Shown: positions 6,519-60,501 of the stretch, one piece after another
Numbering within the stretch: position 1 is the first letter of the stretch
How the letters are laid out: each line of letters begins with the position of its first letter
DNA from: an uncultured Algibacter sp.
Lineage (GTDB): Bacteria > Bacteroidota > Bacteroidia > Flavobacteriales > Flavobacteriaceae
DNA: 64,000 bases
NCBI RefSeq assembly: GCF_963976535.1
Contig: NZ_CAXBLF010000008.1
Span: forward strand, 1,922-65,921
Direction of reading: 5' to 3'
The notes under the pieces: generated by a model
Told to the model about the DNA's origin: nothing
Database searches by the model: none
Seen by the model: the letters and a program-made list of their open reading frames with translations, nothing else
Program-made: the position numbers and the translations under genes

Positions 6519-6691
6519 AGGCTGTCTGAAAAGTCAATTTTGGAGTAAATTGTCACATTGAGCATTGGTGAAATGAAAATATTTTTTCATTGAAAGCACC
6601 TTGCGAAGCAAACCGAAATACATTGAAAATCAAGATTATACGTTTTCGAATGCGCTCAAACTGACAACTCGAAAAACTTTTCAAACAGCCT
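6519..6691. repeat. Composite MITE-like element: 16-bp outer inverted repeat enclosing a GAGCGCAGTCGA-family REP doublet
   Basis: aggctgtctgaaaagt (6519-6534) pairs with acttttcaaacagcct (6676-6691), 1 mismatch; inner arms at 6551-6575 and 6641-6666. Confidence 0.75.
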
Positions 6692-10242: not shown

Positions 10243-10266
10243 CACTTGCCTACCGGAAGGCAGGTG
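10243..10266. repeat. CCTGCC...GGCAGG palindrome copy
   Basis: cacttgcctaccggaaggcaggtg; related copy inside tex at 38074-38089. Confidence 0.7.
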
Positions 10267-11917: not shown

Positions 11918-11935
11918 TCCCGATAGCTATCGGGA
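11918..11935. repeat. 18-bp perfect palindrome TCCCGATAGCTATCGGGA
   Basis: Exact self-complementary 18-mer; also at 17988, 26595 and 38111, degenerate at 48247. Confidence 0.9.
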
Positions 11936-17946: not shown

Positions 17947-17977
17947 TTTTACTAATTTTAAAAGAACTTACTCGCTT

Positions 17978-18022
17978 TGCTCTAACCTCCCGATAGCTAT
18001 CGGATGAGCTAAGAAGGAGTGT
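17978..18022 (-). repeat. Pseudo-tRNA-Asn 5' half with a TCCCGATAGCTATCGG palindrome in the D-loop
   Basis: Direct repeat of 17632-17662 except that aac is replaced by tcccgatagctatcgga (17988-18004). Confidence 0.88.
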
Positions 18023-18128
18023 GTTTTTTTACTAAGCGAGTGCAAATATATGTTGTTTTTTAATTACTGCAAATATTTTTTTAATAAATTTTACCTGAGT
18101 ACATGACAAAAATTGATAATATATCGGA

Positions 18129-18201
18129 TGTCAATCTGAGCGCAGTCGAAGACATTGGAAATATCGTATTCAAAAGCATTTCGACTGCGCTCAATGTGAC
18201 A
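18129..18201. repeat. REP doublet (GAGCGCAGTCGA family)
   Basis: tgtcaatctgagcgcagtcgaagac ... catttcgactgcgctcaatgtgaca. Confidence 0.9.
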
Positions 18202-26318: not shown

Positions 26319-26466
26319 ATTTGAAGCTATTCCTGCTATCCGCTGTATCTTTCTTGTGCTGAACTTGTTTCAGTATCTCATCAAGTGATTTGAATACAAG
26401 ATAGTACAAGTTTTAAATAAAATTTTGGAGTTGGCACAAAAAAGTATGCCGCTTCTATCAGGGCTA
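26319..26466 (-). repeat. Dispersed structured repeat (GATAGAAGCGGCAT...AAAGATACAGCGGATAG family) with a nested gtgctgaacttgtttcagtat palindrome
   Basis: Reverse-complement arms match 48053-48070 and 48162-48178. Confidence 0.65.
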
Positions 26467-26516
26467 GATTATCAGCCAAGGTCAGGTTTAAAGCAGACAA
26501 TTAGTGATAAACCTGC

Positions 26517-26594: not shown

Positions 26595-26612
26595 TCCCGA
26601 TAGCTATCGGGA
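26595..26612. repeat. 18-bp palindrome TCCCGATAGCTATCGGGA
   Basis: Exact copy of 11918-11935. Confidence 0.9.
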
Positions 26613-29901: not shown

Positions 29902-30592
29902 TGTTATTCAGAGCATAACGAAGAATCTACTTTACAAAAATTTATCAAATTGCAAGTATAAAACAATAAGTGTATATATTTTTTGATGATGAGACTTTAA
30001 GATTCATTAGTCGTACCTCCATCTGAATGACATTCGATTTATTTTCCTTTGAATGACAATGTCATTCAGAGCGGAGCGAAGAACCTCTTTTATAAAAAGT
30101 TTATTAAATTAACAGTATGAAAACAATTGGCAATCATAATTATTACGTTTACATGCTTACTAATAAAAGTAAAACGGTTTTATATACTGGTGTGACTAAT
30201 AATTTGAAAGATCGTCTTTATTTTCATAAAAATCCACTTCCATTTTCTAAAGCATTTACATCGAAATATAAATGTTATTATTTAGTTTATTATGAGCATT
30301 TTTTTCAAATTGAAAACGCAATTAAAAGAGAGAAACAGATAAAAGGTAAGAGTAGAGCAAAAAAAGACGCTTTAATTTTCGATTTTAATCCTTCGTGGTC
30401 CTTTTTAAATGAAAATATATAATTTTTCAAGATTCTTCAGTCGTTCCTCCTTCTGAATGACATTACGGTTTCTTTTCTTTGAATAGCAATGTCATTCAGA
30501 GGGTAGCGAAGAATCTTTTTTAATAATATTTTACTAAATTCACATTATTAGAGCTAATAAGATTCTTCAGTCGTACCTCCTTCTGAATGACA
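29902..30592. mobile_element. Array of three palindrome-pair (REPIN-like) units, the middle one carrying a GIY-YIG gene
   Basis: A arms at 29902, 30060 and 30490 (TGTCATTCAGAG..GCGAAGAATCT); B arms at 30000, 30430 and 30560 (AGATTCTTCAGTCG..CCTCCTTCTGAATGACA). Confidence 0.8.
30117..30422 (+). CDS. Stand-alone GIY-YIG nuclease (UPF0213/YhbQ-like)
   Basis: YYVYML...LYTGVT...DRLYFH...LVYYE...AIKREKQIK...NPSW. Confidence 0.93.
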   Translation: MKTIGNHNYYVYMLTNKSKTVLYTGVTNNLKDRLYFHKNPLPFSKAFTSKYKCYYLVYYEHFFQIENAIKREKQIKGKSRAKKDALIFDFNPSWSFLNENI

Positions 30593-32375: not shown

Positions 32376-35300
32376 TCAAGCCACAATAGGTTGTAAAGTC
32401 TCTAATGCTTGTTTTACAGATTTAATATTCTCAAAAGTTAGCATTAATCTTAAACCGCTTCGAGTTTGTTTCTCTTTCATTTTACAAGTGCTAGGATTAG
32501 TTTGTACAAATTGCAACACTTTGGTAAAATTAGCACTTTGATAAAACCTACTTTGTTGATCGTTTATAAAATAACCAATCAACTTACCTTGTTTCATAAT
32601 AATTTTTTCAAACCCAATTTTAGTAGCTAACCACTTTATTTGGACACTATTTAATAAATCGGTCACTTGTTTTGGTAATTCTCCAAAACGGTCGATTAAA
32701 TCCATTTCAAAGATATGCAATTCTTCTTCTGTTTTTAAGTTATTAAGCTGCGTGTATAAATTAAGTCGTTCAGCAATATTATTCACATAATTATCTGGAA
32801 ATAAAAGCTCAAAGTCAGTATCAATAGTTACATCTTTAACGTAAACTTTGTTAGCTTCATCTTCATTATATAAATCTTTAAACTCATTTTCTTTTAACTC
32901 CTCGATAGCTTCATTCAATATTTTTTGATAGGTATCAAAACCTATTTCATTTATAAAACCACTTTGTTCTCCGCCCAATAAATCGCCAGCACCACGAATT
33001 TCTAAATCTTTCATCGCGATATTGAATCCGCTTCCCAATTCCGTGAATTGCTCTAAAGCTGTAATACGTTTTCTAGCATCATCAGTCATGGCCGAATACT
33101 CTGGTGTAATAAAATAACAGAATGCTTTTTTGTTACTCCGACCTACTCTACCGCGCATTTGATGCAAATCGCTTAATCCAAAATTATTGGCATTATTGAT
33201 GAAAATGGTATTAGCATTTGGTACATCAAGTCCGCTTTCTACAATTGTCGTACTTACCAATACATCAAAACCGCCATCCATAAACGAAAGCATAAGTTGC
33301 TCTAATTTTTTACCTTCCATTTGCCCATGACCGATACCTATTTTTGCATCGGGCACCAAACGTTGAATCATACCTGCAACTTCTTTAATATTTTCAATAC
33401 GATTATGTATAAAGAAAATTTGCCCACCACGTTGTATTTCGTAGCTGATGGCATCACGAATAGTTTCTTCGCTAAAACGAATTACGTGACTTTCAATCGG
33501 GTATCGATTTGGAGGTGGTGTTGTAATGACTGATAAATCTCGAGCAGCCATTAAGCTAAATTGTAACGTTCTCGGGATTGGTGTAGCGGTTAACGTTAGC
33601 ACATCCACATTATCTTTTAAAGTCTTAAGTTTTTCTTTTACGGCTACGCCAAATTTTTGTTCTTCATCAACAATCAACAAGCCTAAATCTTTAAACTTAA
33701 CATTTTTATTAACGAGTTGATGTGTGCCAATAAGGATGTCCACTTTCCCCTGTTCTAAACCTTCTAAAGTTTCTCGTTTCTCTTTTGCTGTCCTAAAACG
33801 GTTGACGTAATCTACCGTAACAGGAAAATCTTTTAAACGCTCTCTAAACGTTCTAGAATGTTGATATGCTAAAATGGTAGTTGGCACCAAAATAGCAACT
33901 TGCTTCCCATTATCTACCGCCTTAAACGCTGCACGAATTGCTACTTCGGTTTTACCAAAACCTACATCGCCACAAATCAAACGATCCATGGGGCGTTCAC
34001 TTTCCATGTCTGCTTTTATATCAGCTGTTGCCGTAGTTTGGTCTGGAGTGTCTTCGTAAATAAAAGAGGCTTCCAATTCGTGTTGCATATAACTATCAGG
34101 ATTATACTGATAGCCTTTTTCGGTTTTACGTTTCGCGTAAAGTTTTATTAAGTTGAAAGCCACATGTTTTACACGTGCCTTTGTTTTTTGTTTTAGGGTT
34201 TTCCAAGCATTACTTCCCAATTTGTAAATCTTGGGTGGTTTGCCATCTTTACCATTAAACTTGGTGATTTTATGTAGCGAATGAATACTTAAATACAGCA
34301 CATCGCGCTCGCCATAAACCAATTTAATGGCTTCTTGTTTTTTACCTTCTACATCTATTTTTTGAAGTCCGCCAAATCGCCCAATACCATGATCGATGTG
34401 TGTTACGTAATCGCCAATATCTAAATTTGTGAGTTCCTTTAATGTTATGGCTTGCTTTTTAGCATACCCGTTTTTAAGATGAAATTTATGATAACGCTCG
34501 AAAATTTGATGATCGGTGTAACACACTATTTTATTATCGTGGTCTGTAAAACCTTGATGTAGGGATAAAATAATGGTTTGATATTCTTTGACATCGAGAT
34601 GTGAATCATCAAAAATATCATGAAAACGTTTTGCCTGTTGTTCGCTTACGCATGCAATGTAGTTTGTATAACCGTTTTCGCTATTGGTATTTAGATCTTC
34701 GATTAATAGATTGAATTGTTTATTGAATGCTGGTTGCGGTGTGGTGTGGTGTTCAATAGTTTGAGATTCTTCGCTTCGCTCTGAATGACAAAAGACACTC
34801 TGTGTCCCAAACTCTATAACTGAAAAGTCGAGTAACTGCCTTTTTAATACTGTTGAATTACAAAATAGTTCGTTAGGTTCGGCATGTTTAATATCTGTTG
34901 AAAGTGTTTTAAAAGCGTCTTGTGCTTTATCATAAAAATCATCAATTCTAGAAAAAAGTAAATCGGCATTTTTTAAACACACTACTGTTTTTTGAGCAAT
35001 ATATTTCAGAAAACTTTGTCGGTTTTCTTGTAATAATTTATTCGCTACATTAGGAATAATGCTGATTTTTTTAATCTGCTCGATGGAAAGCTGTGTTTCT
35101 ACATCAAAGGTTCTGATACTGTCCACTTCATCACCAAAAAACTCGATTCGATAAGGCTCGTCATGTGAAAATGAAAACACATCTACTATGCCGCCTCGCA
35201 CTGAAAACTCTCCAGGTTCTGTAACAAAATCGACACGCTTGAATTGATATTCAAACAAAACTTCGTTTACAAAATCAATAGACACCTTATCATTGACACC

Positions 35301-36726: not shown

Positions 36727-38880
36727 TTATTTATGTAATTTTAATTGAATACGCTTACGTGGAATATCTACCTCTAACACTTTTACAATAATTTGTTGAT
36801 GCAAACTCACGTGTTCGTTTACATCTTTTACAAATGAATCAGATAAGTTTGATACATGAATTAATCCACTTTCTTTGATACCAACATCTACAAAACATCC
36901 AAAGTTTGTTATGTTATTGACGATTCCTGGAAGTAGCTGTCCTTCGCGTAAGTCGTTTATCGTTTTTATATTTTGATTGAAGGTGAATACTTTAGCTTGC
37001 TCTTTAATATCCAAACCAGGTTTTTCAAGTTCTTTAATGATATCTTCAAGCGTTAGCAGCCCAACTGAATCTGTGCAATATTTTTTTAAATCAATCTTTT
37101 GAAGTACATCTTTATTTCCAATTAAATCATGAACTGATTTACCCAAATCTTTAGCCATTTTAGTTACTATCCCATAACTTTCAGGATGTACTGCAGAATC
37201 ATCCAATGGGTTTTTAGCACCCTTAATTCTCAAAAATGCAGCGCCTTGCTCAAAGGCTTTTTCGCCTAAACGTGGTACATTTTTAATCTCTTTTCTAGAT
37301 GTGAATACGCCATTTTCATTTCTGTAATTGAAAATATTTTCGGCTAGTTTTGAACCAATACCTGAAACAGAGCTTAGCAACGGTTTACTTGCTGTATTGA
37401 TGTTTACACCAACAGCATTTACACAATTTTCTACCACAACATCCAATTGCTTTTGAAGTTTGGTTTGATCTACATCATGCTGGTATTGACCAACGCCAAT
37501 AGATTTTGCATCAATTTTTACCAATTCGGCTAGCGGATCTTGTAAACGACGCCCAATAGAAACTGAACCCCGAACCGTAACATCATAATTTGGAAATTCT
37601 TCTCTAGCAATTTTTGAAGCTGAATAAATACTAGCTCCTGCTTCACTCACCACAAACACTTTTACATCGTTTTTAAAATGCACTTTTCTAATCAAAGCTT
37701 CTGTTTCTCTTGAAGCGGTGCCATTTCCAATGGCTATGGCTTCAATTTTATAAGCATCGGCTAACGAGCCTATTTTTTTCATAGCTCCGATGCTATCGCT
37801 TTTTGGTGGATGCGGATAAATGGTTTCGTTATATTTTAATTGCCCTTGAGCGTCTAAACATACCACTTTGCAACCTGTTCTAAATCCTGGGTCTATGGCT
37901 AAAACGCGTTTTTCACCTAATGGCGACCCTAATAATAATTGTTTTAGGTTTTTAGCAAATACGATAATTGCAGATTCATCGGCTTTTTCTTTTGCAATTT
38001 GCAACGCTTCATTACTTAAGGACGGTAATAATAATCGTTTGTAAGCATCTTTAATGGCAAGTTCTATTTGTTCCCTGCCAGCAGGCAGGCTAGGCGCGCA
38101 AGCGTTATTACCCCGATAGCTATCGGGGCGAATCATTCTACTTTCAATTTTATCTAAAGCTTTATCATTATCTATCTCAATTTTAACACGAATAAACCCT
38201 TCACTTTCGGCTCTTAAAATAGCTAACAATCGGTGTGATGGAATTCTGCTTAAGCGCTCTTCCCAATCAAAATAATCTCTAAACTTTTGCGCTTTTTCAT
38301 CCGCTGCCTTTGTTTTTATCACTTTCGTGGAAATCATAGCGAAACGCTCTAATTGATGACGAATATTATTTCTTATATCGGTTCGTTCATTAATCCATTC
38401 GGCAATAATGTGTCGCGCCCCTTCTAAAGTGTCTTCAACTGAATTTATCTCGCCTTTCACATATTTAAATGCTATGGATTCGATATCGTTAACATTTTGG
38501 CTCATTATGATTTTAGCGAGTGGTTCTAATCCATTTTGGCGTGCTTTTTCTGCTTTGGTTTTTCTGCTTTTCTTGTATGGTAAGTATAAATCTTCAAGTG
38601 TGGTTATATCTTGAGTAGCTTCTATTTTTTGTTTTAATTCTGGAGTTAAAACAGCTTGTTCTTCTAAAGCTTTTAAAATGGCTTTTTTTCGTTTTTCTAA
38701 AGCTTCAAATTGCTCTTTAAGCTTAACGATTTCTCCTATTTGAACCTCATCTAAATTTCCCGTGCGTTCTTTTCTGTAACGCGAAATAAAAGGGATGGTG
38801 CAATCTTCATTAAGTAATTCAATCGTGTTTTTTACCGATTGTTTAGGTAGTTTCGTATTTGAAATTATATAATCTATCAT
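36727..38880 (-). CDS. tex: Tex family RNA-binding protein
   Basis: TIPFISRYRKE, DPGFRTGCK, GRRLQDPLAELVK, HhH and S1 domains. Confidence 0.95.
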   Translation of the reverse strand: MIDYIISNTKLPKQSVKNTIELLNEDCTIPFISRYRKERTGNLDEVQIGEIVKLKEQFEALEKRKKAILKALEEQAVLTPELKQKIEATQDITTLEDLYLPYKKSRKTKAEKARQNGLEPLAKIIMSQNVNDIESIAFKYVKGEINSVEDTLEGARHIIAEWINERTDIRNNIRHQLERFAMISTKVIKTKAADEKAQKFRDYFDWEERLSRIPSHRLLAILRAESEGFIRVKIEIDNDKALDKIESRMIRPDSYRGNNACAPSLPAGREQIELAIKDAYKRLLLPSLSNEALQIAKEKADESAIIVFAKNLKQLLLGSPLGEKRVLAIDPGFRTGCKVVCLDAQGQLKYNETIYPHPPKSDSIGAMKKIGSLADAYKIEAIAIGNGTASRETEALIRKVHFKNDVKVFVVSEAGASIYSASKIAREEFPNYDVTVRGSVSIGRRLQDPLAELVKIDAKSIGVGQYQHDVDQTKLQKQLDVVVENCVNAVGVNINTASKPLLSSVSGIGSKLAENIFNYRNENGVFTSRKEIKNVPRLGEKAFEQGAAFLRIKGAKNPLDDSAVHPESYGIVTKMAKDLGKSVHDLIGNKDVLQKIDLKKYCTDSVGLLTLEDIIKELEKPGLDIKEQAKVFTFNQNIKTINDLREGQLLPGIVNNITNFGCFVDVGIKESGLIHVSNLSDSFVKDVNEHVSLHQQIIVKVLEVDIPRKRIQLKLHK
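38074..38128 (-). repeat. Two palindromes in frame inside tex (RPDSYRG and SLPAGR)
   Basis: ccccgatagctatcgggg (38111-38128) and cctgccagcaggcagg (38074-38089). Confidence 0.88.
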
Positions 38881-42047: not shown

Positions 42048-44114
42048 TTAACTAATACTTAACCCATTGCCAACACTGGCATCATCAGGATTTACAAACA
42101 CTAATTTACCTTCTGCCGTTTCAGTCATTAAAATCATACCTTGGCTTTCAACACCTCGTAACGCTCTTGGAGCTAAATTCACTAATACAGTTACACGTTT
42201 TCCAACAACTTCTTCCGCATTAAAACTTTCAGCAATACCAGACACAATGGTTCTTGTATCAATACCTGTATCAATTTTAAGTTTTAATAGCTTTTTGGTT
42301 TTTGGCATTTTTTCGGCTTCTAAAATGGTGCCTACTCGAACATCTAACTTTGTGAAATCTTCAAAAGTGATGGTGTCTTTTTGAGGTTCTAATGTTTTGT
42401 TGGCCGCTTCGTTTGCCTTTTTACTTGCTTCTAATTTATCGAGTTGTTTTTGGATGGTTTCATCTTCAATTTTTGAGAATAATAATTCTGCTTTTCCTAT
42501 TTTGTGTCCTGCTGGCAATAAAGTTTCTTTTGTGCTTACTTCATTCCAAGACGTTTCGACTGCGCTCAACGTGACATTAAGAATACCTTTCAGTTTTGTT
42601 GATGTAAACGGTAAAAAAGGTTCACATAAAGTCGCTAATGCCGAAGCTATTTGAACCGACACATACATAATAGTTTGTGTTCTGGCTTCATCAACTTTAA
42701 TGACTTTCCAAGGCTCTTCATCTGCTAAATATTTATTACCCAAACGTGCTAAATTCATTAATTCTTGTCCCGCTTCTCTAAAACGATAACGCTCTATTGA
42801 ACTTGCAATGACATCTGGATACGCTTTTATTTTAGCTAAAATTTCGGCATCAACTTGGGTGAAATTACTCGGAGCCGGCACTATACCTTCATAATATTTG
42901 TTGGTAAGCACGACTACTCGGTTTATAAAGTTCCCGAAAATAGCTACTAACTCATTATTATTTCTAGCTTGAAAATCTTTCCAAGTAAAATCGGTATCCT
43001 TCGTTTCCGGCGCATTAGCATTTAATGCATAACGCAACACATCTTGCTGACCTGGAAATTCTTTTAAATACTCAGGTAACCAAACCGCCCAATTCTTAGA
43101 CGTGGATAATTTATTGCCTTCTAAATTTAAAAACTCATTTGCAGGCACATTTTCTGGAAGGATATAACTGCCTTCGGCTTTTAACATGGCTGGAAAAATA
43201 ATACAGTGAAATACAATATTATCTTTTCCTATAAAGTGAACTAGTTTAGTGTCTTTATCTTTCCAATACGGTTCCCAGTCTTTTCCAACGCGGTCTGCCC
43301 ATTCTTTGGTTGAAGAAATGTAACCAATAGGCGCATCAAACCAAACGTATAGCACTTTGCCTTCTCCTCCTTCTGCTGGCACAGGAATTCCCCAATCTAA
43401 ATCTCTGGTTACCGCTCGTGGACGTAGCCCATCATCAATCCAAGATTTACATTGTCCGTAAACATTGGGTTTCCAATCTTTTTTATGACCTTTAAGAATC
43501 CATTCTTTTAAAAACGCTTCATGTTTATCTAAAGGTAAAAACCAGTGTTTTGTTTGCTTTAAAGTCGGTACATTTCCTGTAATTGCCGATTTTGGATTAA
43601 TTAAATCTGTAGCATTATGGCTCGTTCCACAGTTTTCACATTGGTCGCCATAACTTTCTTCATTACCACATTTAGGGCAAGTTCCCACAACAAAACGATC
43701 TGCTAAAAACTGATTTGCTTCTTCATCATACAACTGTTCTGTAGTTTCTTCTATAAATTCACCTTTTTTATCTAAAGTTTTAAAAAAATCTGAAGCTGTT
43801 TTATGATGAATAGGCGCCGATGTACGTGAATAATTATCGAAAGTTATTCCAAAATCTTCAAACGATTTCTTAATAATCGCATGATATTTATCAACTACAT
43901 CTTGAGGCGATACACCTTCCTTTTTTGCCTTAATAGTAATTGGCACACCATGTTCGTCACTTCCACCAATAAATGCTACATCATTCCCTGTTAAGCGTAA
44001 ATAGCGTGCATAAATATCCGCAGGCACATAAACCCCTGCTAAATGCCCAATGTGAATAGGTCCGTTTGTATATGGAAGTGCTGTGGTGATTGTATATCGT
44101 TTTGGCTTGCTCAT
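42048..44114 (-). CDS. metG: Methionine--tRNA ligase
   Basis: [13 protein letters not shown], Zn knuckle, KLSTS, C-terminal tRNA-binding domain. Confidence 0.97.
42552..42576 (-). repeat. REP arm in frame inside metG (VTLSAVET)
   Basis: cgtttcgactgcgctcaacgtgaca matches 18177-18201 at 23/25. Confidence 0.88.
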
Positions 44115-44131: not shown

Positions 44132-44324
44132 TGTCTGGTCGAGCGCAGTCGAGACCTGATTAAAAACCTCTCGACTGCGCTCGAGGGGACAAAACATGCT
44201 AATTTCAAAGTCATTGCGAATGAGATTCGACTGTGGTAATCTCATGAATTGGGGTTCTCATTCAACAGATTCCCGTACTTCGACTGCGCTCAGTACAGGC
44301 AAACTCCGTTTCGGTCGGAATGAC
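44132..44324. repeat. REP cluster: GAGCGCAGTCGA doublet (44132-44191) plus a GTCATTGCG/AATGAC doublet (44210-44324) with a nested arm
   Basis: cttcgactgcgctcagtacaggc is inserted inside agattcccg...ggaatgac. Confidence 0.8.
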
Positions 44325-47968: not shown

Positions 47969-48044
47969 GTAATTTTTTTGTTTTTAATACGTCCAAATAT
48001 ACTATTGTTAGTTGAATTTTTTATCCTTTTGTTACAATTGTACT

Positions 48045-48218
48045 GCGTTAAGGATAGAAGTGGCATCCTTTATGCGAAGAATTGATACTATATATTTTCT
48101 TTATAAATAAAAATTATTTAATAGTTAGAGATCCCGAAGCAAGTTCGGGACTGCTTCGCAGAAAGATATAACGGATAGCCTGACCTTATAACGCCATAAG
48201 CGTTTTAAGGGAACGCCC
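48045..48218 (+). ncRNA. Structured Flavobacterial repeat/ncRNA candidate (Flavo-1-like) carrying internal inserts
   Basis: gcgttaaggatagaagtggcatcc...aaagatataacggatagcctgacc...gggaacgccc; nested atcccgaagcaagttcggga. Confidence 0.45.
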
Positions 48219-53472: not shown

Positions 53473-53559
53473 TTTAAAAACAAAAAACAACTCTTAAAAC
53501 AGAGTAACAGTATTCATTAATAGTTAGTTTAATGTCTTATTTAGTTTAGTTTAGTTGGT

Positions 53560-53586
53560 AAAAGTGGGCTGTGGTAGCCCACTTTT
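53560..53586 (+). terminator. Terminator, copy 1 of 3
   Basis: aaaagtgggct-gtggt-agcccactttt. Confidence 0.8.
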
Positions 53587-53732
53587 CTTTTTACCCTATC
53601 TACAAAACTTGCTATCCGTCTCATACAAAAATTTTTCTTGTAGCTTTTTATATCATGCATTATTTTTTAAAATATAGTTGATTATATTCTATGTTAATTT
53701 AACCTAAAATGATGTAATAATAATAGATAATT

Positions 53733-53790
53733 TAGGCTATAAATTAATCAATATCAATGTTTTACAAAACACATTTGCTCTTTACATTTG
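53733..53790 (+). promoter_or_regulatory. Conserved promoter, copy 2 of 3
   Basis: tcaatatcaatgtttt, then TACATTTG at 53783. Confidence 0.6.
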
Positions 53791-53818
53791 TAGTGTTGAA
53801 CGTTATAAAAACCAAATC

Positions 53819-54418
53819 ATGAAAAACGCAATTAAACACACAAAAAAAGGAATCTTAATGGTAACCATGTTTGCTACCATATTAAGTTTCGCAAATGAAG
53901 CTACATTATTTAATATTAAAAATGAAGCTAAAAGAACCTCTCTTACTTTACACAATGTAAAGAAAGGAAACCTACTATCTGTAAAAGATACAAATGGTGT
54001 AATTTTGTTCAAAGAGTATATACAAGAATCTGGTTCTTATACCAAAGGTTTTGACTTAACAGCATTGCCAAATGGTGCGTACATTTTTGAACTCGACAAA
54101 GATTTAGAAATAAATACAATACCTTTTACCGTAAAGTCTAATATTGTTCTTTTCGAAAAAGAAAATGAAAAAACTATCTTCAAGCCTTTGGTACGAGTTA
54201 ATGACGACAAATTATATGTCTCAAAACTTTCCTTAAATGAAGAACCTTTAGAAATTGAGATTTACTTTGAAGGTTTAGACGGTTATGAACTTATGCATTC
54301 TGAAACCGTTGATAGCACTAAAACTATTGAAAGAGTTTACAGGTTAGATGGATTAAACTTAGGCTCTTACAAAATCGTATGTTTTACAGAAGGTAGAAAA
54401 TTTATCAAAAACATTTAA
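53819..54418 (+). CDS. Secreted protein with two small beta-sandwich (DUF3244/CTD-like) domains, paralog 1
   Basis: Signal peptide; YTKGFDLTALPNGAYIFEL. Confidence 0.8.
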   Translation: MKNAIKHTKKGILMVTMFATILSFANEATLFNIKNEAKRTSLTLHNVKKGNLLSVKDTNGVILFKEYIQESGSYTKGFDLTALPNGAYIFELDKDLEINTIPFTVKSNIVLFEKENEKTIFKPLVRVNDDKLYVSKLSLNEEPLEIEIYFEGLDGYELMHSETVDSTKTIERVYRLDGLNLGSYKIVCFTEGRKFIKNI

Positions 54419-54451
54419 TTAAATTTAAATACCTTATTTAGAAACGTTGTT

Positions 54452-54478
54452 AAAAGTGAGCTGTAATGGCTCACTTTT
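54452..54478 (+). terminator. Terminator, copy 2 of 3
   Basis: aaaagtgagc-tgtaatg-gctcactttt. Confidence 0.8.
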
Positions 54479-54622
54479 TTTTTAAAATTTCACAACAAAG
54501 CAATTTTATAAAGGCCTTAATAAATTCTCTTGAAGTAATATCCTAGGTTATTGTATTCATTTAACCTACATATATTCTATTTTAATCTAACTTAAAATTA
54601 ATGAATTAACAACAAACAATTT

Positions 54623-54679
54623 AGCACATAAATAGGTCAATATCAGTGTTTTAAGAAGCTAATTTGTGTTATATATTTG
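54623..54679 (+). promoter_or_regulatory. Conserved promoter, copy 3 of 3
   Basis: agcacataaataggtcaatatcagtgtttt, then TATATTTG at 54672. Confidence 0.6.
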
Positions 54680-54707
54680 TAGTGTTGAACGTTATAAAAC
54701 CCAAATT

Positions 54708-55298
54708 ATGAAAAACACAAAAAAAGGAATCTTAATGGTAACTATGTTTGCTACCTTGTTAAGTTTCGCAAATGAAGCTACATTATTTAATATTAAAAAT
54801 GATGCTGAAAGAACCGCTCTTACTTTATATAATGTAAAGCAAGGAAACCTTCTATCTGTAAAAGATATTAATGGTGTGATTTTGTTCAAAGAATATATTC
54901 AAGAATCTGGTACTTATACCAAAGGTTTTGACTTAACAGCATTACCAAATGGTGCTTATATTTTCGAACTTGATAAAGATTTAGAGATAAATACTATCCC
55001 TTTTACTGTAAAGTCTAATATTGTTCTTTTCGAAAAAGAAAATGAAAAAACTATCTTCAAGCCTATGGTGCGCGTAGAGGGGGATAAAGTATATGTTTCA
55101 AAACTTGCTTTAAACGAAGAACCTTTAGAAATCAAGATTTACTTTGAAGGATTGAATGGTTCTGAACTCATGTTTACTGAAACCATTGAAAACACTAAAA
55201 TTATTGAAAGAATCTATAGACTAGACGGTTTAAATACAGGGTCTTACAAAATTGTGTTTTATACCGAAGGAAGGGAATTTATTAAAACTATTAATTAA
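54708..55298 (+). CDS. Secreted beta-sandwich protein, paralog 2
   Basis: Highly similar to 53819-54418; start MKNTKKG at 54708. Confidence 0.8.
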   Translation: MKNTKKGILMVTMFATLLSFANEATLFNIKNDAERTALTLYNVKQGNLLSVKDINGVILFKEYIQESGTYTKGFDLTALPNGAYIFELDKDLEINTIPFTVKSNIVLFEKENEKTIFKPMVRVEGDKVYVSKLALNEEPLEIKIYFEGLNGSELMFTETIENTKIIERIYRLDGLNTGSYKIVFYTEGREFIKTIN

Positions 55299-55330
55299 AT
55301 ACTAAATACCTTATTTTAGAATCAGTTGTT

Positions 55331-55357
55331 AAAAGTGAGCTATTATGGCTCACTTTT
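55331..55357 (+). terminator. Terminator, copy 3 of 3
   Basis: aaaagtgagc-tattatg-gctcactttt. Confidence 0.8.
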
Positions 55358-55486
55358 TTTTTAGAATAATTTTAATTGTCCATTTTTAAATGGTTCATGT
55401 AAATCACAATCGAACTAGGCATTGAATTGTCTTTAAAACACTCTTTTCTAAATAGTTTTACGAGATTATTTATTTGTTTTGCAATT

Positions 55487-60419: not shown

Positions 60420-60501
60420 AACACCCCTAAAGTCCCCTCAAGGGGACAATTCACTCAGTTGAATAGAACGATTGTCCCCTTGAGGGGACTTTAGGGGTGT
60501 T
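60420..60501. repeat. Perfect 31-bp inverted repeat with a 20-nt spacer; each arm contains a GTCCCC..GGGGAC hairpin
   Basis: aacacccctaaagtcccctcaaggggacaat / attgtccccttgaggggactttaggggtgtt. Confidence 0.92.

Follow-up and report, generated by a model that had tools for sequence, protein, structure and literature searches.

Two ultra-short palindromic repeats inserted in frame in the tex gene of an uncultured Algibacter

We analysed a 64,000-nucleotide (nt) stretch of DNA from an uncultured Algibacter sp. of the Flavobacteriaceae (assembly GCF_963976535.1, contig NZ_CAXBLF010000008.1, positions 1,922 to 65,921; hereafter the window), in which the tex gene carries two different palindromes a few codons apart. 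This open reading frame (ORF), on the minus strand at 36727..38880, encodes a Tex/Spt6-like RNA-binding transcription accessory protein of 717 amino acids (aa). Our preferred explanation, to which we give a probability of about 0.7, is that both palindromes are copies of two ultra-short, dispersed, non-autonomous families resembling repetitive extragenic palindromic (REP) elements, and that their insertion into the DNA of tex has added 5 and 7 residues to the translated protein. The arrival of palindromic repeats in frame is an established kind of event, known for REPs and Rickettsia palindromic elements (RPEs) (PMC3733652), and the Tex case is a real, well-supported example of it. An initial annotation, made from the letters of the window, had read the palindromes as insertions in a tolerant loop of Tex, and our results support that reading.

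Tex of Pseudomonas aeruginosa (2OCE/3BZC) matches the window protein over residues 10-715 (E = 8e-181), and Pfam Tex_N, Tex_central_region, Tex_YqgF, HHH and S1 are on record for this protein and its relatives; full-length similarity together with these domains places it in the Tex family. The coding strand of the stretch with both palindromes, ATT CGC CCC GAT AGC TAT CGG GGT AAT AAC GCT TGC GCG CCT AGC CTG CCT GCT GGC AGG GAA, specifies residues 250-270 of Tex as I R P D S Y R G N N A C A P S L P A G R E. Sequence and frame are as the initial annotation described them, with two different palindromes in frame within about 18 codons, and both are confirmed as real blocks of tex. Insert 1 (38111..38128) is a perfect 18-nt palindrome, CCCCGATAGCTATCGGGG, that encodes (R)PDSYR(G) and is a minor C..G variant of the Bacteroidota-wide family TCCCGATAGCTATCGGGA. 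Insert 2 (38074..38094) is a 21-nt near-palindrome, CCTAGCCTGCCTGCTGGCAGG on the coding strand, that encodes PSLPAGR and equals the family CCTGCCTGCCGGCAGGCAGG with one extra base; within it, 38074-38089 forms CCTGCC-AGCA-GGCAGG, with a 6-bp stem and a 4-nt loop. Between the two lie native codons on the minus strand (38095..38110; the last base of G257, then N258 N259 A260 C261 A262), which align with NNACA in all relatives. This patch is the most GC-rich short island of the window (63% at 38070-38129 vs 32% across the window), and dinucleotide-preserving shuffles of the window gave 0 matches to either palindrome pattern.

Comparison with relatives identifies both blocks as insertions. The 120 closest Tex proteins (88-100% identity) have RPDSY in the 90% cluster of the window protein (P0001) alone and a gap there in every other case. 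P[S/C]LPAGR occurs in three lineages, namely the window cluster, P0002-P0005 (94% identical, 712 aa) and P0089/P0133 (88%, 732 aa), and is a gap in about 110 of the 120, all named Algibacter, Thalassobellus and Flaviramulus species included. Gaps in close relatives had been expected at both peptides, and in proteins that lack the inserts these are clean at both sites. The same residues in repeat-poor relatives, which the initial annotation had named as grounds to reject its reading, did not turn up. In DNA alignments, the empty site of insert 1 reads ATG CGT TCT AAT and the window ATT CG[C CCC GAT AGC TAT CGG GG]T AAT, so that the 18-mer has been swapped for 3 target nt (TTC), a net gain of 15 nt or 5 aa. 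The palindrome does encode PDSYRG, as first noted, but at the protein level it brings five net residues plus an S-to-G replacement rather than six new residues. Insert 2 is a clean 21-nt addition, with a 1-nt ambiguity of placement, that neither lost nor duplicated its target: the empty allele (L126) reads TGC GCG GAA, with the junction after GCG, and the filled one TGC GCG [CCT AGC CTG CCG GCA GGC AGG] GAA. An attempt to align the 8 kb around tex with relatives in search of further insertions and deletions (indels) ended where synteny stops, just beyond tex and the ferritin gene.

Could the two segments instead be ancestral parts of Tex that relatives have deleted, or artefacts of assembly? 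The presence of insert 2 in three non-sister lineages formally permits ancestral presence and several losses. However, insert 1 sits in one tip lineage nested among empty ones, diverse Tex proteins of other phyla lack both blocks, and the blocks, of at least 63% GC in a gene of 32% GC, are exact matches to dispersed repeats. The filled allele was, moreover, assembled independently in many samples and runs, and metagenome run X4 contains it together with a doubly empty allele of a relative that is about 92% identical. We regard ancestral presence and artefact alike as very improbable.

The two inserts had been called independent hits. They do belong to distinct families, but they differ in age. 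Insert 1 is recent, since it is still a perfect palindrome and is confined to one tip lineage at the species level. Insert 2 is an older insert that is patchily shared through ancestry or recombination. In L001 and L004 it retains a 14-bp perfect palindrome, GCCTGCCGGCAGGC, which two synonymous changes in the window (CCG to CCT and GCA to GCT) have cut to the 6-bp stem, and the three filled lineages differ mutually at 1-3 of the 21 positions. All three carry an extra A or T, at the same position, relative to the 20-mer consensus CCTGCCTGCCGGCAGGCAGG; because this base is shared, the sequences argue for a single origin of insert 2, and three separate origins, each with the same extra base in the same place, are unlikely. 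The distribution of the insert on the Tex tree is not monophyletic. At least part of this patchiness is due to recombination, since tex of L127 (encoding P0005) is a clear mosaic of two sister populations: a block of about 600 nt shows about 99% identity to the empty L002 type, and the rest 99-100% identity to the filled L001 type.

An AlphaFold2 model of the window protein, built on 117 sequences that included diverse Tex representatives, has a mean predicted local distance difference test (pLDDT) score of 96.0 and a predicted template modelling (TM) score of 0.93, and matches Tex crystal structures of P. aeruginosa with TM scores of 0.80-0.84 (0.84 for 3BZC). A model from a shallow alignment (42 sequences at ≥90% identity) was unusable, with a pLDDT of 51. 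In the deeper model, the sole low-confidence stretch comprises blocks 251-260 (pLDDT 65) and 261-270 (70), against at least 91 elsewhere, and a helix at 238-249 is followed by a loop at 250-266 and a long helix at 267-316. Both insert peptides are thereby predicted to sit in one flexible inter-helix loop, which agrees with the loop location first proposed. Across 112 aligned Tex representatives of diverse origin, the segment between these helices is unconserved in sequence and variable in length, the region equivalent to residues 236-285 spanning 34-63 residues (mode 38-39; 50 in the window protein).

The proposal that this site is an insertion hotspot also fared well. Only three internal indels occur among the 120 closest Tex proteins and all are repeat-derived: inserts 1 and 2, which lie 7 residues apart, and TSTALST at about residue 196 of P0089. 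By a rough estimate, the chance that two of three inserts would fall within 21 nt of a 2.1-kb gene is a few percent. Such a hotspot may reflect tolerance by the protein, targeting at the DNA level, or both.

Since loops in aroA and glnS repeat the Tex pattern, pile-ups of several families in tolerant loops are general. ORFs of at least 120 aa enclose 19 of 130 genomic copies of the 18-mer. Each of the 19 is read in one of the two frames that lack a stop codon, PDSYR or PIAIG; the third frame contains TAG. All 10 of the 18-mer-bearing ORFs tested gave Pfam hits, and in seven the insert falls inside the domain envelope. Among the hosts in this test are a class-I Gln/Glu-tRNA synthetase, EPSP synthase (aroA), RNase HII (rnhB), a serine dehydratase, a response-regulator receiver domain, a type IX secretion system (T9SS) sorting domain and a Y2 transposase, and one more insert falls in the linker of an E2 acyltransferase. 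In Lacibacter relatives, one loop of aroA (...TH DS|PL|TTHHY...; L023:502-1788 of Lacibacter cauensis, homologues P0284-P0403, DNA in L213-L216) has received the 18-mer in two frames; one lineage reads it as PIAIG, and at least one further lineage, in which it entered 1 nt away, reads it as PDSYR, a compensated A..T variant included. The same loop holds three other repeat-like inserts (DFDSAQSS...PSTSLR, RLRSAGQAS and PPLGGGG), and exactly 3 nt (CAC or ACT) gave way to the 18-mer in each of the three aroA alleles sequenced. A second aroA loop, about 70 aa upstream, shows (AS)PNPSKGG(A/T)SE inserts.

In glnS (L054:258-2357 of a member of the Chitinophagaceae, homologues P0404-P0523), N has become PDSYRD in one loop of L054 (net +5 aa) and EN has become PDSYRD in another loop of P0411 (net +4 aa), while LPAGRQG, from the second family, adds a net 7 aa, the same gain as in Tex. 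Over all coding cases examined, entry of the 18-mer with loss of 3 target nt was seen in five of six. Two glnS loops show PDSYR and LPAGRQG/LPAGQAG in different lineages, along with long NYTN-rich expansions.

Do such loops attract insertions as DNA? The hotspot would then be set by preferred sequences or structures, such as hairpin loops, G-NNN-T or an adjoining palindrome, and not by the tolerance of the protein. The two entry points of the 18-mer 1 nt apart in aroA of different lineages fit this idea, as do the biased flanks of the 18-mer, among which G..T is the commonest pair (36 of 192), with T at -1 in 6-7% and A at +1 in 5% of copies against a background of 30%. Likewise, a subset of copies lies in the loops of other hairpin repeats (8 of 130 copies have at least six of the next eight flank pairs complementary, compared with 0.6% of control positions), and some copies, read by eye, lie in tRNA-gene loops. 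However, with at least five unrelated types of insert in one aroA loop, tolerance is an easier explanation than five target specificities; there is no evident motif common to the Tex, aroA and glnS targets; and the 18-mer and the second family are not significantly clustered within 60 nt (2 cases observed vs 0.47 expected). We consider DNA-level targeting rather unlikely to be what sets the hotspot, and it is not exclusive of REP-like insertion, with which it is compatible.

The 18-mer is a family of the phylum. When we scanned one genome per prokaryotic species with YCCCGATAGCTATCGGGR, at least 118 of the 120 matches listed, whose totals are lower bounds, were labelled Bacteroidota, the remainder being one unnamed bacterium and one metagenome-assembled contig labelled Variovorax. 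Hosts among the matches listed are Flavobacteriaceae, Chitinophagaceae, Saprospiraceae, Bacteroidales, Cytophagales and Sphingobacteriales, and at least five orders are represented (Flavobacteriales, Bacteroidales, Chitinophagales, Sphingobacteriales and Cytophagales). The fetched loci contain about 190 copies, of which some 85-90% lie outside long ORFs; flanks are unrelated from copy to copy and the 18-nt boundaries are exact. The terminal pair covaries (T..A in 116 copies, C..G in 13, mixed in 4), and about half of the variants with two mismatches are compensated perfect palindromes (GCCC...GGGC, TACC...GGTA, ...GATAATTATC...). The palindromes are predicted to form DNA hairpins of -6 to -8 kcal/mol (-6.4 kcal/mol for insert 1). 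Extension of the flanks of 130 copies placed most of them outside any longer hairpin, leaving a minority tail. In other genomes, the 18-mer is often seen in the loop of hairpins of the GTCATTGCGAG...GCAATC type (L043, L068, L081, L087).

The window itself holds four copies, with 0 expected, one in tex and three intergenic. Two of the latter are intact copies of TCCCGATAGCTATCGGGA, one between divergent ORFs (11918..11935) and one 21 nt upstream of the next ORF (26595..26612); the third (17988..18005), near tRNA-Asn, has a 1-nt deletion (TCCCGATAGCTATCGG-A), and the missing G is present in a related population of run X4. Empty sites of the intergenic copies were sought in related populations, where the spacers proved too diverged for anything save this 1-nt difference. 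The segment around the third copy (17960-18050) is conserved with Flagellimonas crocea (L056, around 4718), and its flanks, GCTCTAACC ... GAGCTAAGG, resemble a tRNA D-arm split by the palindrome. At Rfam, nothing came near the gathering score at the Tex site or at one intergenic copy.

Copies also occur in viral contigs (59 in 50 stretches). Some viral or prophage contigs carry three to five (L159, L162 and L164, from one 23-kb viral contig, and L175), and several viral copies adjoin hairpin repeats of the CCTCACCCC / CTCTCCAAAGGAGAGGGG type.

If the families are mobile, what moves them? The identity of the 18-mer across the phylum, its unrelated flanks, its variability among close relatives and the 3-nt replacement imply a conserved factor and an integration chemistry. 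A host function conserved throughout Bacteroidota may mobilise the elements in trans, and would act on the hairpin or palindrome form, the symmetry of which is kept by compensated changes. Integration would remove a few target bases. Insertions would be widespread, but in essential genes only in-frame, stop-free copies in tolerant surface loops would survive; several families may be found in the same loops because only tolerated insertions persist.

Spread could also do without a transposase: at breaks or stalled forks, templated repair, gene conversion or template switching would copy the palindromes from elsewhere in the genome, with a few bases of the target lost. Such a process fits the junctions, which show target deletions of 3 or 6 nt in place of target-site duplications, as well as the lack of a recurring neighbour gene in the loci. 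Apparently nested or half-duplicated copies, with left-left-right or left-right-right arms (L035, L075, L135, L163, L168, L171), also fit; if these are nested insertions, the outer copy is short by 3 or 6 nt. However, copying driven by homology would not readily yield about 190 copies with exact 18-nt boundaries and unrelated flanks, and conservation of the sequence across the phylum points to a specific recognising factor. We judge spread by repair alone to be unlikely.

Several observations weigh against REP-like insertion as we have set it out. No candidate mobilising enzyme was found among the neighbour genes at 120 loci of 8 kb, where no gene recurs beside the 18-mer except members of generic large families. 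Replacement of 3 nt does not hold throughout, since one glnS case is a net gain of 12 nt. An identical 21-nt variant of insert 2 in tex of L004, at 83% nt identity, is unaccounted for by recombination among close lineages. RNA contigs flank the tex insert and do not span it. Two differences from REPs also count here: REPs carry a GTAG/CGTC end tag that gives them an orientation, whereas the 18-mer is a perfect palindrome with no tag or asymmetry, and REP/RAYT systems (RAYT, REP-associated tyrosine transposase) are species- or genus-specific, whereas the 18-mer is identical across a phylum. Finally, all 13 protein variants of the window 90% cluster, drawn from Tara, ENA, Logan and NCBI assemblies, keep both peptides unchanged, although these variants are too alike to show selection.

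This retention in variants from many samples would also be expected if the inserts were kept as useful, either as mRNA or DNA hairpins that tune tex expression or as surface residues that alter Tex function. Compared with L004, insert 2 has two substitutions, both synonymous, and the centroid fold of the mRNA retains both hairpins. Yet the 91-nt mRNA fold is unexceptional (z = -1.55, a stability equalled or surpassed by 14 of 200 shuffles), and the two synonymous changes wear down the palindrome of insert 2 instead of preserving it. Relatives without one or both inserts are abundant and share a sample with the filled allele, and the same elements are found in many unrelated genes and in intergenic DNA. 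A useful role seems quite improbable; the extra residues of Tex are most likely neutral passengers.

The closest known systems are REP, RAYT and REPIN elements, which are likewise short, GC-rich, multi-copy palindromes, mainly extragenic, with some copies in frame, and are presumed to be non-autonomous and mobilised in trans. Within ORFs, some GTAG- and CGTC-tagged REPs lie in frame in housekeeping genes whose shorter homologues lack them (Di Nocera et al., 2013; PMC3733652). HUH Y1 (TnpA-REP-like) subclasses have been reported in Bacteroidetes (PMC6006769). The Tex palindromes are shorter than REPs (18-21 vs 20-40 nt), and the 18-mer differs in replacing target bases at its junction. In addition, REPs have a cognate RAYT gene, and no RAYT-type recurrent neighbour was seen beside the 18-mer in the 120 loci of 8 kb searched. 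Miniature inverted-repeat transposable elements have terminal inverted repeats, lengths of about 50-500 bp and target-site duplications; the 18-21-nt elements do not fit this description, since they show target loss or clean addition.

RPEs are about 100-150 bp long and restricted to Rickettsia. The initial annotation had likened the Tex inserts to them, and the likeness holds for the outcome, in that both are palindromic repeats in frame in conserved genes that add a tolerated peptide. It is a likeness of consequence only: the window elements are 5-8 times shorter, are in another host and have no size or sequence relation or other sequence-defined feature in common with RPEs. GC clusters of yeast mitochondria, of about 30-50 bp, are GC-rich palindromes that spread in an AT-rich genome, are polymorphic among strains and are sometimes coding (var1). 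Their organelle host, sequence and junctions differ from those of the window elements, and there is no sign of a common mechanism. HIP1 of cyanobacteria is an 8-mer palindrome, conserved across its phylum and over-represented in genes and spacers, that accrues mainly by substitution; unlike the window elements, it does not make discrete insertions that lengthen proteins.

A literature search on the exact 18-mer sequence returned no paper, and keyword searches on intragenic palindromes of Bacteroidota returned general work on REPs and miniature inverted-repeat elements only. The size, perfect symmetry, phylum-wide identity and 18-in/3-out junction of the 18-mer are not described in the literature searched. 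A bolder possibility, which we hold tentatively and would not bet on at even odds, is that (T/C)CCCGATAGCTATCGGG(A/G) represents a hitherto undescribed class of ultra-short mobile elements, peculiar to Bacteroidota and present across the phylum, that swaps a hairpin for about 3 nt by a mechanism outside known transposition chemistry, enters the phages of its hosts and is a major source of loop indels in conserved proteins, with Tex, aroA and glnS as multi-family hotspots. The class may extend to related GC-rich palindromes, CCTGCCTGCCGGCAGGCAGG among them.

Every internal length difference among the 120 closest Tex proteins is a repeat insertion, and aroA and glnS behave likewise; for this reason, tiny palindromic repeats may rank among the main origins of indels in loops, and of novel surface peptides, in the proteins of Bacteroidota. 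This matters for alignment, for phylogeny and for how lineage-specific inserts are read. The peptides PDSYR, PIAIG and LPAGR(Q) could serve as simple annotation markers of such inserts.

The second family, too, is dispersed. Its core, CCTGCCGGCAGG, ranks second by frequency among 12-nt perfect palindromes in 0.91 Mb of Bacteroidota loci chosen without regard to this family, and it occurs there in six loci vs about 0.05 expected by chance (our own estimate). The exact 20-mer CCTGCCTGCCGGCAGGCAGG is also found in viral contigs, mostly of high GC (0.59), in which ORF calls are unreliable. A further copy at 10243-10266 had been listed in the initial annotation; a related copy is indeed there, but it is a decayed 17/20 match at 10245..10264 in the 5′ untranslated region of a gene with the likely product start MKFNTKVIHGG, and is not coding. 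By eye, CCTGCCTGCCGGCAGGCAGG lies inside tRNA-gene-like sequences in the viral contigs L202 (around 2284), L179 (around 8616) and L209 (around 515), in the position of the variable loop in L202 and L179 and of the D-loop in L209.

Other repeats were seen in the window. A third family with the 12-nt centre TCGACTGCGCTC occurs at 832-865, 6633-6666, 18168-18201, 42543-42576 and 44158-44191, with inverse copies at 779-821 and about 18130-18160. The centre is set in 4-5-bp stems that covary between copies (CATT/AATG, ACGTT/AACGT, CCTC/GAGG), followed by (G)TGACA; one copy lies in frame in Tex of P0089 (L004), where it encodes TSTALST, and a similar sequence is present in aroA. Several direct and inverted copies of a related family, TGTCATTCAGAGCG.AGCGAAGAATCT, lie at 29902-30592 and 34763-34790; it is of the GTCATTGCGAG...GCAATC type, whose hairpin loops often hold the 18-mer in other genomes. 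Two Rfam Flavo-1 RNA motifs score above the threshold of 42 bits, at 26325-26469 on the minus strand (56.3 bits) and at 48042-48189 on the plus strand (43.0 bits). A tandem array at 53554-55367 comprises three units of about 880 nt with 77-91% identity, and each unit ends in a terminator-like hairpin, GTTGTTAAAAGTGAGC...GCTCACTTTTTTTTT. At 60420-60501 lies a perfect 31-nt inverted repeat, AACACCCCTAAAGTCCCCTCAAGGGGACAAT, with arms 20 nt apart, each of which contains a GTCCCCT..AGGGGAC hairpin.

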